DNA of 30,751 nucleotides, taken from positions 533-31,283 of the forward strand of contig CAYRYX010000001.1 of NCBI GenBank assembly GCA_964428755.1, written 5' to 3'. Of the stretch, positions 5,574 to 8,254 are shown in pieces. The translations under genes and the position numbers were made by a program. This DNA is from an uncultured Bdellovibrionales bacterium. GTDB taxonomy: Bacteria; Patescibacteriota; Minisyncoccia; Moranbacterales; UBA1568. Under the pieces are notes generated by a model. That model was given only the letters and a program-made list of their open reading frames with translations, was not told the origin of the DNA and did no database searches. Every line of letters starts with the position of its first letter. Position 1 is the first letter of the stretch.

Positions 5574-6992
5574 ATGAATGATAAGAAGAATCAGATAGGC
5601 GTGGTTGGTCTGGCGGCGATGGGATCCAATCTCGCGATGAACCTCGCGGATCACGGGTTTCGCACGGCGGTCTATAACCGTTCTCCCGAACGGACGGGGG
5701 CGCTTCTTTCGGAATATGGGAGCGGCAAGGGTCTTGATCCGACGTATACGCCGGAATCGTTCGTCTTGTCCATCGAGACTCCTCGGAAAATCATCCTCAT
5801 GGTGAAGGCGGGTGATGCGACGGATGCGGTCATCGCGCAGTTCGCACAGCTTCTCGAGCCGGGTGACATTCTTATTGACGGTGGAAACTCGTTCTTCCGG
5901 GACACGATACGTCGTGCAGAGTCGCTCCGGGAGAAGGGGATCCGGTTCGTCGGGATAGGGATTTCCGGCGGCGAGGAAGGCGCACGTCGCGGTCCGTCCA
6001 TGATGCCCGGTGCGACCGGTGATCTGTGGACCGAACTTCGACCGATGCTCGAGGCGATCACGGCCTCGGACTTCGACGGGAATCCGTGCGTGGCTCCGAT
6101 CGGAGAGGGTGGAGCGGGTCATTTCGTGAAGATGGTGCACAACGGTATCGAGTATGCCGATATGCAGCTCATCGCCGAAGCTTATTTTCTCATGAAGAGC
6201 GGCCTCGGGCTTTCGAACGATGAGATTGCCGATGCATTCGAAAAGTGGAACAGCGGTCGGTTGGAGTCTTATCTCATCGAGATTACCGCGAGTATCCTCC
6301 GTGTGAAGGAACAGGATGGCGGTCGCATCATCGACCGGATTCTCGACACGGCCGGATCAAAGGGTACGGGAAAGTGGACGACCGACCAGGCGCTCGAACT
6401 GGGGGCTCCTTCGTTTTCCATCGCAGCGGCGGTATTCGCCCGTTCCGCATCGGCCGATAAGGCGATGCGCGTCCGGCTCTCGGATATTTTTGAGGAATCG
6501 GAAACATCGTCTGCCAGAAATCTCACGCTCGACGATGTCGAAAATGCGCTCTATGCCGCGAAACTCCTCTCGTACGCGCAGGGGTACGAACTCCTGTCGC
6601 TTGCGGCGAAGGAATACGGCTGGAATCTTGATTTCCGAGAAATCTCGCGTATCTGGCAGGGCGGATGCATCATCCGGGCGCGGTTCCTCCGGGAGCTGAC
6701 GCTCGTGTATACGGAAAACCCTGACCTCTCGCACCTGCTCCTCTCCTCGTTCGCGCAAGGTGCGATCAAGGAAAATATCGGCGCACTCCGGAAAGTTTCC
6801 GGGGCGGCGGTAGCGACGGGAATTCCTATTCCTGGATTTCTCTCGGGTCTATCGTACTTTGATACCATGCGTACGGCACAAGGATCGGCGAATCTTATCC
6901 AGGCGCAGCGCGACTATTTTGGTGCGCATACGTTCCAGCGTGAGCTTGGCGGAGAGCCGGAGCACTTCGATTGGAATTTTGAAAGTCTATGA
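5574..6992 (+). CDS. gndA: NADP-dependent 6-phosphogluconate dehydrogenase, decarboxylating
   Basis: GLAAMG, YNRS, IDGGNS, VKMVHNGIEY, KGTGKWT, IWQGGCIIRA, LIQAQRDYFGAHTF. Confidence 0.98.
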   Translation: MNDKKNQIGVVGLAAMGSNLAMNLADHGFRTAVYNRSPERTGALLSEYGSGKGLDPTYTPESFVLSIETPRKIILMVKAGDATDAVIAQFAQLLEPGDILIDGGNSFFRDTIRRAESLREKGIRFVGIGISGGEEGARRGPSMMPGATGDLWTELRPMLEAITASDFDGNPCVAPIGEGGAGHFVKMVHNGIEYADMQLIAEAYFLMKSGLGLSNDEIADAFEKWNSGRLESYLIEITASILRVKEQDGGRIIDRILDTAGSKGTGKWTTDQALELGAPSFSIAAAVFARSASADKAMRVRLSDIFEESETSSARNLTLDDVENALYAAKLLSYAQGYELLSLAAKEYGWNLDFREISRIWQGGCIIRARFLRELTLVYTENPDLSHLLLSSFAQGAIKENIGALRKVSGAAVATGIPIPGFLSGLSYFDTMRTAQGSANLIQAQRDYFGAHTFQRELGGEPEHFDWNFESL

Positions 6993-7378
6993 TAAAAGAT
7001 TTTGATACATGGAATGATCAAAAAAAGTCGCTCGATGTGAGGGCGGAGAGATTCTTCTTCAAGTCCGGGGAAGTGTGGTGGTGCGCGCTTGGAACGAATG
7101 TCGGCCACGAATCATGCGGAAAAGGAGAGACGTTCCGTCGCCCGGTCCTTATCTTGAAGAAACTTTCTCGTGAGAGCTGTATCGTGATTCCGCTGACTTC
7201 GAAAGAAAAATCCGGATCATGGTTCGCGGATATCACCCTTCATGGAGAGAAAAGGGTTGCGCTTCTTTCACAGCTACGCATGGTTAGCTCAAACCGTTTT
7301 CAGCGGAGACTTGCCGTGCTTGATGAAGGGGATTTTTCTTCGGTAAAGCGAAAGCTCGAGGAACTCCTCGAGCTTTGA
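6989..7378 (+). CDS. PemK/MazF family endoribonuclease toxin, no adjacent protein antitoxin
   Basis: GEVWWCALGTNVGHE...RRPVLIL...VIPLTS PemK pattern; ATGA overlap with the gnd stop. Confidence 0.85.
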   Translation: MIKDFDTWNDQKKSLDVRAERFFFKSGEVWWCALGTNVGHESCGKGETFRRPVLILKKLSRESCIVIPLTSKEKSGSWFADITLHGEKRVALLSQLRMVSSNRFQRRLAVLDEGDFSSVKRKLEELLEL

Positions 7379-7425
7379 AATCATCACCCCGCTTTCGCGG
7401 GGATCGGTGGGTAACCCCAAAAGTA
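7345..7425 (-). ncRNA. candidate antisense small RNA overlapping the toxin 3' end
   Basis: Lies downstream of a perfect - strand promoter; ccccgc-GAAA-gcgggg GNRA hairpin on - strand (7387-7402); 12-bp stem at 7351-7376 followed by U-rich nucleotides; ends estimated. Confidence 0.4.
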
Positions 7426-7430
7426 CTTCT

Positions 7431-7458
7431 ATTATAAATCATTTCATTGATTTGTCAA
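7431..7458 (-). promoter_or_regulatory. perfect-consensus sigma70 promoter, antisense to the toxin gene
   Basis: - strand reads TTGACA (7458-7453), 16 bp, TATAAT (7436-7431). Confidence 0.75.
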
Positions 7459-7462
7459 GCTG

Positions 7463-8254
7463 ATGCTTGTAAACATATCCGTATCATCCGAGGAAGCGAA
7501 ACGGGCTACGGCGGAAAGTATTTCGAGTAGCCTACTCGAACTCAAGAAAGAGGGAACTCCCGTTCTCTTTCTTTTTTCCGGTGGATCCGCACTGTCCGTT
7601 CTTGATATGATCGATCCCTCCTGTCTCGGAGGAAATCTGATAATGGCACCCGTCGATGAGCGGTTCGACCCGACCGGCGAGGCGAGCAACTTCGCCGCGT
7701 TCATGAGCACCGATTTTTTCCGGAAAGCGGAATCGGCTGGTGTGCGCTTCATCGACACTCGCGTGAAAGAAGGGCAGGGGAGAGGCGACCTTGCAAACGA
7801 ATTCGAAACCGCGATCCGAAAATGGATGGCGGATTTCGTTACTCCGACCGAATCTTCCTACCTTGTCATTCCGAGCGTAGTCGAGGAATCTCGTCCGTGC
7901 CCCATGGGCAAAGTCATCGCCATCCTCGGCATGGGTCCGGACGGGCACACTGCGGGAATATTTCCCGATGCCGATGAAAAGGCGTTCCATGATCGTTTCG
8001 AGGGCAATCGTCTTGTCGTCGGGTACCGCGCACCGGAATATGCTACCTGTCCGGAGCGCGTCACCGTGACGCTTTCATTCCTCGAAAAGAACGTCGACCA
8101 GGCGTTCGTCTTCGTTTCAGGGGAAGAGAAGCATACTGCCTGGGAGCGCGTCCTTCGCAATGACGAGCCGATCCATCTTCTTCCCGCTGGGATATTCCAG
8201 AGACTCTCGAAAGTGCAAATATTCACGGATTTGGATCGAAAAATCACGATATGA
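7463..8254 (+). CDS. pgl: 6-phosphogluconolactonase with an in-frame palindromic insertion
   Basis: LFSGGS, PVDERF, LGMGPDGHTAGIFP, RVTVT, VSGEEK; downstream of gnd. Confidence 0.88.
   Translation: MLVNISVSSEEAKRATAESISSSLLELKKEGTPVLFLFSGGSALSVLDMIDPSCLGGNLIMAPVDERFDPTGEASNFAAFMSTDFFRKAESAGVRFIDTRVKEGQGRGDLANEFETAIRKWMADFVTPTESSYLVIPSVVEESRPCPMGKVIAILGMGPDGHTAGIFPDADEKAFHDRFEGNRLVVGYRAPEYATCPERVTVTLSFLEKNVDQAFVFVSGEEKHTAWERVLRNDEPIHLLPAGIFQRLSKVQIFTDLDRKITI
7865..7891 (+). repeat. REP/RPE-like element half inside the pgl CDS
   Basis: gtcattccgagcgtagtcgaggaatct (VIPSVVEES) matches the intergenic GTCATT..GAG..GAAG(C/A)ATC family at 8808, 8843, 12384, 12476, 13685. Confidence 0.8.

Follow-up and report, generated by a model that had tools for sequence, protein, structure and literature searches.

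A TGTC/CGTC-tagged palindromic repeat probably adds an in-frame surface loop to 6-phosphogluconolactonase in a Patescibacteria genome

We analyzed a 30,751-nucleotide stretch of DNA (the window; contig C1, positions 533-31283) from an uncultured bacterium of the candidate phyla radiation (CPR)/Patescibacteria, whose assembly comprises 1.04 Mb in 137 contigs and is 92% complete (genome label G000). The pgl gene of the window, which encodes 6-phosphogluconolactonase (Pgl), contains a short repetitive extragenic palindromic (REP) element within its reading frame. Taken together, the results make it very probable that a TGTC/CGTC-tagged REP entered pgl, kept the frame and adds a disordered surface loop of 21 residues to an otherwise intact enzyme. 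This phenomenon is known from Rickettsia and other bacteria, and CPR/Patescibacteria is a new host group for it. The same sequence was present in metagenomes from activated sludge, wastewater and freshwater sediment. Below, WIN denotes the pgl sequence of the window, and P-, G- and L-numbers denote Pgl homologs, genomes and related DNA stretches, respectively.

The repeat within pgl and its predicted loop

The element is the 27-mer GTCATTCCGAGCGTAGTCGAGGAATCT at 7865-7891 on the + strand, which lies in frame in pgl and was matched in 0 of 100 shuffles. Codons 126-146 translate as VTPTESSYLVIPSVVEESRPC, and the GMGPDGHTA motif starts 10 residues further on, at residue 156. An initial annotation of the window had reported this in-frame repeat and the peptide ahead of the motif, and both were borne out. 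The gene and the parts of the element are as follows.

7463-8254, + strand: pgl coding sequence, 263 aa, 6-phosphogluconolactonase (open reading frame (ORF) list and PF01182)
7835-7897, + strand: inserted block of 63 nt (21 codons, F125-P145), placed by protein and codon alignments
7838-7855, + strand: probable decayed left copy GTTACTCCGACCGAATCT, recognized by its likeness to the element of P0005 and unique in the genome
7864-7892, + strand: intact TGTC-tagged REP, identified by exact match, a twin on contig C95 and complementary arms in relatives
7864-7867, + strand: TGTC tag
7868-7872, + strand: left arm ATTCC
7873-7884, + strand: centre GAGCGTAGTCGA
7885-7889, + strand: right arm GGAAT
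7890-7892, + strand: tail CTC

The block is made up of the decayed copy, a 9-nt spacer, the intact 27-nt copy and 6 more bases. Its predicted 21-residue addition to Pgl is FVTPTESSYLVIPSVVEESRP, and the predicted peptide across it includes ...SSYLVIPSVVEESRPCPMGK... and ...LVIPSVVEESR.... If 9 internal bases are removed from the single element of P0005, GTCATTCCGACCGTAGTCGAGGAATCT, and 2 bases are exchanged, the left unit results. It is thus likely a REP that has lost 9 nt internally and acquired 2 substitutions, and the degenerate unit of the initial annotation is plausible, although the comparison was made post hoc and carries no statistics.

Family membership of the intact copy is evident from its matches elsewhere. 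A twin identical at 27/27 bases is found on contig C95, and the exact 26-mer GTCATTCCGAGCGWAGTCGAGGAATC of the pgl copy occurs in at least 120 stretches (L012-L131) from at least nine phyla; the hosts among the matches listed belong to Verrucomicrobiota, Bacteroidota, Acidobacteriota, Gemmatimonadota, Clostridia, Chloroflexota, Planctomycetota, Kiritimatiellae and Patescibacteria. Verrucomicrobiota (Udaeobacter, Chthoniobacterales) were the commonest hosts among these listed matches. We counted copies in the genome by a strict definition (Y-GTC tag, 5-nt arm A[TC][TC]SS, typical first triplet, 6-39-nt spacer, perfectly complementary arm and C), which was adopted because looser regular expressions were too noisy (184 matches versus ~88 expected; 235 versus ~136 expected) and were discarded. 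The strict definition revealed 84 high-confidence copies in the 1.04-Mb genome, compared with 0-4 in order-1 Markov shuffles, and the proposed kinship of the pgl repeat with intergenic elements was thereby confirmed. The copies are located on many contigs and fall into at least six sub-types, including GTCATTGCGAGCGWAGCGMRGCAATCCAG, GTCATTCCCGCGAAGGCGGGAATCCAG, GTCATCCCGGGCTTGACCCGGGATCCAG and GTCATTCCGAGCTTGTCGAGGAATCT, plus long forms with an inner hairpin. Nearly all are preceded by T or C, giving the tag TGTC or CGTC. The pgl copy and other copies with ATTCC arms end in CTN, and copies of the ATTGC, ATCCC and ATTCCCGC types end in CCAG; free copies span 23-45 nt and have lengths of any kind.

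The arms of the family covary. In the GAGCGNAG sub-family of this genome, they are complementary in 16 of 17 copies representing five arm types, and the covarying pairs include ATTCC/GGAAT, ATTGC/GCAAT, ATCCC/GGGAT and ATCGC/GCGAT. When a degenerate pattern that did not require complementarity was applied to 31 related genomes, the arms were complementary in all 61 matches, and a reversed-pattern control gave 0. In the pgl copy, the successive pairs are A-T, T-A, T-A, C-G, C-G, G.A, A.G, G-C and C.T, of which 6/9 are Watson-Crick; the loop is GTAG (4 nt) with a 9-position stem, or 12 nt when just the 5 perfect pairs are counted.

To place the block in its evolutionary context, we compared Pgl homologs (n = 92), the closest named one being the 6-phosphogluconolactonase of Candidatus Moranbacteria, a CPR/Patescibacteria lineage. 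As evident from a 28-sequence alignment, most homologs are 235-237 aa long and show a ~21-residue gap at the block. The gap of about 20 residues that the initial annotation had predicted was thus found, and an aligned segment of the same length, the outcome that it had named as speaking against an insertion, was not seen. The insert is absent from 19 of the 28 ingroup sequences and from 7/7 outgroups (35-40% identity), which read W-x-x-x followed directly by H/N-P-x-G with no added residues. Empty-site homologs read ...W-M-T-E directly followed by H-P-D-G-R..., and the genomes G004 and G002 of the same GTDB genus also have an empty site (...EWMTE then HPDGR...). In a maximum-likelihood Pgl tree from which the insert columns were removed and which was rooted on the outgroups, the insert is a derived state. 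Seven of the nine insert-bearing sequences fell within one clade of ten; P0012 was placed inside a well-supported insert-free clade, and the position of P0008 was unresolved. At least four changes of state at the site are required by branches with good support. Contigs from four independent metagenomes contain the block in identical form and without gaps, which excludes an assembly artefact, and it was found too in P0002 and P0003.

These data leave practically no weight for two other readings, namely that the segment is a normal loop of this lineage whose likeness to the repeat is due to chance or convergence, or that it is an ancestral loop lost elsewhere. A native motif of RecG, VISPLVEESE, demonstrates that such mimicry of the repeat peptide can occur. 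The pgl copy, however, is identical at 27/27 bases to another genomic copy and recurs at 120 or more loci in other phyla where the chance expectation is 0, the outgroups do not have the segment, and the same codon is occupied by different but recognisable members of the family in homologs such as P0008. An ordinary or ancestral loop was therefore effectively refuted.

The enzyme itself appears otherwise complete. The ORF matched PF01182 (Glucosamine_iso/6PGL; Pfam) with E = 1e-19, with 238 residues on 215 profile positions, and matched TIGR01198 (pgl) in part. The 40 invariant columns among 28 homologs include the GxGxDGH residues G156, G158, D160 and H162. An AlphaFold2 run on the 28-sequence alignment gave a model with a mean predicted local distance difference test (pLDDT) score of 89.7 and a predicted template modelling score of 0.87, in which residues 131-145 were the sole internal stretch with a pLDDT below 50. 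In this model, the low-confidence block separates helix 107-125 from the strand (150-156) that runs into the GMGPDGH loop, in agreement with the surface loop anticipated at the outset. The best PDB matches in Foldseek were the 6-phosphogluconolactonases 3tx2, 3ico, 4tm8, 1pbt and 2j0e. The most economical reading of the model is an active enzyme with a disordered surface loop. The protein database entry for the window pgl (P0001) is a 203-aa product that covers 77% of the ORF; the public gene call probably starts too late, because the alignment of every homolog begins at residue 1 of the 263-aa ORF.

Since the frame is kept and no stop codon is present, the block is most likely transcribed and translated along with pgl. 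The seven alleles of the site that we identified add 36, 36, 60, 63, 63, 69 and 78 nt, all of which are multiples of 3 and stop-free. Precedents exist for segments that are passed over, such as the GC-rich "byp" elements of yeast mitochondria and gene 60 of phage T4. Excision of the block from the mRNA or its skipping by the ribosome was considered here because the insert is short and structured and lies in a conserved enzyme; it has no direct support and is highly improbable. All seven site alleles and every intragenic copy found keep the frame without stops, a constraint that is not expected of a removed segment, and we found no take-off and landing codon pairs and no splice-like boundaries. 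An Rfam scan of the whole window at the gathering threshold returned one tRNA and nothing else.

In the mechanism that we favor, a member of the REP superfamily would have entered the pgl coding sequence at the point where helix 107-125 meets the strand ahead of the catalytic GMGPDGH loop, and the block would be translated with the gene as a 21-residue surface loop. It would persist because selection probably spares only in-frame, stop-free copies in tolerant loops, and we infer that the block is nearly neutral and mobile.

Filled, empty and replaced alleles of the pgl site

Codon-aware DNA alignment of the site revealed that insert-bearing homologs do not all carry the same element. The contents other than the two-unit block are listed below.

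P0005: single GTCATTCCGACCGTAGTCGAGGAATCT
P0006: decayed GCCGTTGCGAGCGAAGCGCGCCAATCC
P0007: cut-off TGTCATTCCGAGC... left half, then GTCATTGCGAGCGCCTGCCCGCCTCTGGAGGGAAGCGAGAAATCT
P0008: GTCATTGCGAGTCCGCCAAAGGCGGATAAACTCCGCGAGGAATCT
P0009: ATCATTGCACTCCCGCCAAGGCGGGAGCGGCAATCC
P0012: cut-off left half, then GTCATCCCTATCCGCCAGCTAGCGGACAAGGGATCT

The insert of P0008 is equal at ~38/44 bases to an intergenic copy on contig C45 of the window genome. As the site alleles are distinct sub-families that are also found free, simple point divergence in place is insufficient to explain them. P0004, which has no such insert, is nested in the clade of WIN, P0002 and P0003 with support of 100/97. In both P0004 and P0011, native codons are replaced by another palindrome of nearly equal length, and these sites are not plainly empty. 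The replacement palindrome of P0004, CTTAGAGGCTCAACCTCTAAG, folds at -8.6 kcal/mol (z = -4.1). It belongs to a second family of short palindromes, with the form CTTAGNGGC-N3-5-GCCNCTAAG and the translation LSGLATK or LRGSTSK, which we observed in the pgl genes of P0004 (L002:3001-3711) and P0011 (L009:1001-1708) and also in frame in QueA of the window genome (C29:10806) and in Sua5 of the same-genus genome G003 (L138). The process in this second family looks like overwriting rather than insertion. P0010 (WMTDF-AKEGR) seems to have arisen by deletion. Around the P0012 insert, the flanking sequence (WMVDF...DPRHCGK) is closer to that of the main insert-bearing clade than to that of P0020, the sister of P0012, and the insert may represent either an independent insertion or an imported segment. 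By these alignments, the pgl site shows that one hairpin has been replaced by another, beyond a single insertion.

The two-unit block common to WIN, P0002 and P0003 is conserved to the nucleotide, although these genes are 79-88% identical in DNA. The identical run over the block is 60 nt between WIN and P0003 and ~88 nt between WIN and P0002, while the next longest run is 28 nt. For WIN and P0003, whose genes are 79% identical, a 60-nt run was obtained in 0 of 20,000 permutations, and a codon-position-aware calculation gave P ~3e-4. Such block-wide identity points to recent exchange or to a constraint at the DNA or RNA level. Two observations favor the exchange of short cassettes: the palindrome common to P0004 and P0011 crosses the gene tree, and the P0012 insert is bordered by sequence like that of the insert clade. 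The hairpin content at this codon has been swapped repeatedly between lineages, likely through recombination over short tracts, gene conversion or renewed insertion at copies already present.

The alternative of a constraint holds that the block is kept for a DNA- or RNA-level function in the gnd-mazF-pgl cluster, such as binding a protein, serving in recombination, pausing transcription or signalling mRNA processing or stability, and that the amino acids are a by-product. The identical runs of 60 and ~88 nt despite 36% divergence at third positions and the retention of the exact 26-mer across many phyla would fit such a function, and an RNA-element role was suggested for many REPs by Di Nocera, De Gregorio and Rocco (2013, BMC Genomics 14:522; PMC3733652). 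Nevertheless, we regard it as improbable: the pgl copy is a weak hairpin, relatives thrive when the site is empty or is occupied by other family members or an unrelated palindrome, the family is found in many unrelated genes in both orientations, and recent lateral exchange explains the identity equally well.

Several results also weigh against the insertion of a translated REP as we have described it. The pgl copy folds as DNA at -3.1 kcal/mol (z = -0.6), which is no better than shuffled sequence, and its minimum-energy fold leaves the ATTCC/GGAAT arms unused. The term palindromic element consequently rests on family membership and arm covariation and not on thermodynamics, and the palindromic nature proposed initially needs the correction that this copy, with its 5-bp Watson-Crick arms, is only weakly palindromic. 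The uniformity over 60 nt is not what would be expected of a neutral, anciently inherited loop. PF01797 (RAYT/Y1), PF01548 and PF02371 (IS110) were absent from the 92%-complete assembly, while control genomes were matched, and a target-site duplication was not visible at the block. In two metatranscriptomes from a related study, no RNA contig covered pgl, and one exact 190-nt contig was found on gnd.

We also observed cut-off left halves (TGTCATYYC...) piled 5' of one full copy. In the intergenic case, GTCAT starts at 8771 and 8788 and the complete copy follows at 8808, and inside pgl the same arrangement is present in three lineages (WIN 7838-7891; L005; L008). These stacks hint at insertion into, or recombination at, pre-existing copies. 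It is possible, if on balance doubtful, that CGTC/TGTC hairpins are still being written into Patescibacteria genomes by a transposase-independent, hairpin-directed process aimed at existing copies. Such writing could proceed, for example, by template switching or gene conversion at extruded hairpins. Particular protein loops would then act as "cassette sites" at which palindromes are overwritten and left halves pile up, and the transfer of cassettes between lineages would be uncoupled from that of the host gene. If this is correct, it would answer the question left in the 2013 survey of whether CGTC repeats still form (PMC3733652). The variation of presence and absence within the genus suggests that they still form or did so recently. 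The hairpin replacement at a fixed codon, the nucleotide-perfect block and the stacked left halves are the observations that most merit attention in this respect.

In-frame copies in other genes and copies elsewhere in the window

The pgl insert is one of many in this genome. At least 19 of the 84 high-confidence copies lie in frame in real genes (12 genes), and imperfect copies were found in ArgS and in a second reverse transcriptase (RT) paralog; the proteome scan suggested by the initial annotation thus turned up in-frame copies in at least 12 other real genes. At each in-frame copy, the host protein exceeds its Pfam profile in residues. The RT motif GLPLGNLTSQ...YADDF we take to be like that of diversity-generating retroelements (DGRs). 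The host genes are as follows.

MnmA: in-frame copy, Pfam domain split in two stretches
MiaA: in-frame copy, 271 residues on 242 profile positions
Sua5/TsaC: in-frame copy, 194 residues on 177 profile positions
ArgS DALR domain: imperfect copy, 129 residues on 117
Two DGR-type RT paralogs: in-frame copies, 222-229 residues on ~197
DUF2142 protein: three in-frame copies
Tgt: in-frame copy, 117 residues on 78
QueA: in-frame copy, 107 residues on 94
LeuS editing domain: in-frame copies at two sites
FemAB-like protein: in-frame copy
Wzy_C-like membrane protein: in-frame copy, weak match under the Pfam cut-off

Pairs in opposite orientation occur in the Tgt, MnmA, Sua5, RT and Wzy-like genes, and the encoded peptides follow the patterns VIP/VIA-S..., CH(S/P)... 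and ...R(N/D)D(K/G/N). About one quarter of the copies in the genome are intragenic, many of them in genes for tRNA modification and aminoacylation, so such loops will regularly be encountered in gene calling, domain modelling and structure prediction of CPR proteins. The initial annotation had spoken of a selfish element that adds loops to housekeeping enzymes. The genome-wide in-frame copies agree with the second half of this statement, while "selfish" and "inserting" are inferences, and neither a mobilising enzyme nor a target duplication was found. Long ORFs antisense to real genes (C33, C133 and C84) were discarded as false positives. The same applies to RecG (C72), in which F-VISPLVEESE-A is a native motif that mimics both the repeat peptide and its DNA GTCATTTCCCCGCTCGTCGAGGAATC and calls for caution in peptide-based repeat scans.

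Occupancy of other genes also varies among relatives. The Sua5 insert is absent from G003, which belongs to the same genus, and from G001, G009 and G013. The MnmA site is empty in G001, G002, G004 and G013, and also in G005 as judged by a 15-nt gap between matches. It holds a REP dimer in the window genome and a different, much longer palindromic element in G003 (L145) and G009 (L149); this latter insert is AT-richer and encodes 55-72 aa (...SPSRLINxFxxRKNxLxQRQPxxFFRT...). Copies of the sub-family number 13, 0, 0, 15 and 1 per genome in the genus, with 13-15 in G000 and G003 and 0-1 in G001, G002 and G004. Together with the young Sua5 insertion, the occurrence in one genus of filled, empty and replaced states of a single codon provides a natural system for studying whether and how CGTC repeats are still mobile.

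The two RT paralogs (RVT_1; C23:7830-8912 and C73, - strand) share a site at which both have an in-frame REP pair; several relatives have other inserts there, and others have none. The presence of a DGR-type RT correlated with the presence of REPs among 31 relatives (odds ratio 6, one-sided Fisher P = 0.024). Because this test ignores kinship, the correlation is a weak lead only.

Further family copies in the window, recognized from their sequences, are listed below.

8808-8833, + strand: intergenic copy GTCATTCCCGCGAAGGCGGGAATCCA, 8-bp stem, GAAG loop and CCA tail, dRS3/CGTC-1-like
8843-8869, + strand: intergenic copy GTCATTCTGAGTGCAACGAAGAATCCA
12384-12412, + strand: intergenic copy GTCATTGCGAGCGTAGCGAAGCAATCCAG of family D19, the nearest relative of the pgl copy in the window (78% over 32 nt)
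12430-12459, - strand: family copy
12476-12509, + strand: intergenic long-loop copy GTCATTGCGAGGAGTCTTCGACGAAGCAATCCAG
12535-12572, - strand: intergenic copy in opposite orientation, GTCATCGCGAGGGTCGTTTCGACCCGTGGCGATCCAGG
13685-13711, + strand: intergenic copy GTCATTCTGAGCGAAGTGAAGAATCTC

Folding of the copy at 8808 yields a strong hairpin (-8.9 kcal/mol, z = -3.7). The pgl gene lies 3' of gnd (5574-6992) and a MazF-like gene (6989-7378). In the closest relatives (L001, L002 and L132), gnd and pgl are separated by a spacer of ~50 nt that contains the REP TGTCATTCTGAGCGTAGCGAAGAATCCAG. The MazF-like gene and its downstream region (6989-7462) occupy the position of this short spacer in the window.

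Comparison with known repeat systems

The repeats resemble several known systems. GTAG REPs and REPINs are likewise short dispersed hairpins that are often dimeric and sometimes intragenic. In contrast, the tag here is TGTC/CGTC and not GTAG, and the mobiliser of GTAG REPs, RAYT (an IS200/IS605 Y1 transposase), had no match; an explanation by REPIN-RAYT or by IS110 was unsupported, as those enzyme families are absent from the assembly. The dRS3 repeat of Neisseria is an intergenic element and an integration target. Its ATTCCC-N8-GGGAAT core is identical in the window copy at 8808-8833, whereas dRS3 is not known to have a role in coding sequences comparable to that seen here.

Like the Rickettsia palindromic elements (RPEs), the present repeats are dispersed palindromes that lie in frame in housekeeping genes encoding conserved proteins. 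Classical RPE-1 elements are ~100-150 bp long, unlike the 27-nt core and 63-nt block described here. The hosts also differ, as Rickettsia is an obligate intracellular alphaproteobacterium and the present host, which comes from sludge and sediment, is a CPR bacterium with a free-living or episymbiotic lifestyle. The proposed Rickettsia-like element therefore holds at the level of a superfamily shared with RPE-4, RPE-6 and dRS3, and not for the RPE-1 type. For the RPEs themselves, see Ogata et al. (2000, 2002, as cited in PMC3733652).

The closest likeness is to the CGTC-tagged REPs, for which families CGTC-1 to -4 were defined by Di Nocera et al. (PMC3733652). According to that survey, these REPs have a CGTC tag (TGTC in many), an 8-9-bp stem that opens with A-T and T-A, a loop of 4-5 nt and an unpaired 3-nt 3' tail, mostly CCA; several sub-types are present per genome, head-to-head dimers occur, intragenic copies encode 20-30 extra residues, and there is no dedicated transposase. 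dRS3 and RPE-6 are members of CGTC-1 and RPE-4 is a member of CGTC-4 (PMC3733652). The repeat family of this genome fits the TGTC/CGTC-tagged REP superfamily by its sequence features, and the pgl copy is placed at the superfamily level. It shares with the CGTC REPs the TGTC tag at 7864-7867 and the unpaired 3' tail, and its family shares the multi-copy nature, the presence of at least six sub-types and the pairs in opposite orientation. The absence of RAYT/Y1 and IS110 genes from the assembly likewise agrees with repeats that lack a transposase of their own. The copy at 8808 matches CGTC-1 exactly, with its 8-bp stem, 4-nt loop and CCA tail. Unlike CGTC REPs, the pgl copy has 6/9 Watson-Crick pairs in the stem, a tandem G.A and the tail CTC instead of CCA.

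The survey covered five host phyla, and a text search of it returned no mention of Patescibacteria (PMC3733652). A full-text literature search likewise returned no paper tying CGTC REPs or in-frame palindromes to CPR/Patescibacteria. Our results extend the in-frame decoration of proteins by REPs, known from Rickettsia and a few Proteobacteria, to a group of ultra-small bacteria with genomes that are usually considered streamlined. In Xanthomonas recB, different REPs were noted at about one site (PMC3733652). Beyond that remark, the survey does not describe family members taking each other's place at a single codon, which is the pattern that the pgl alleles display here.

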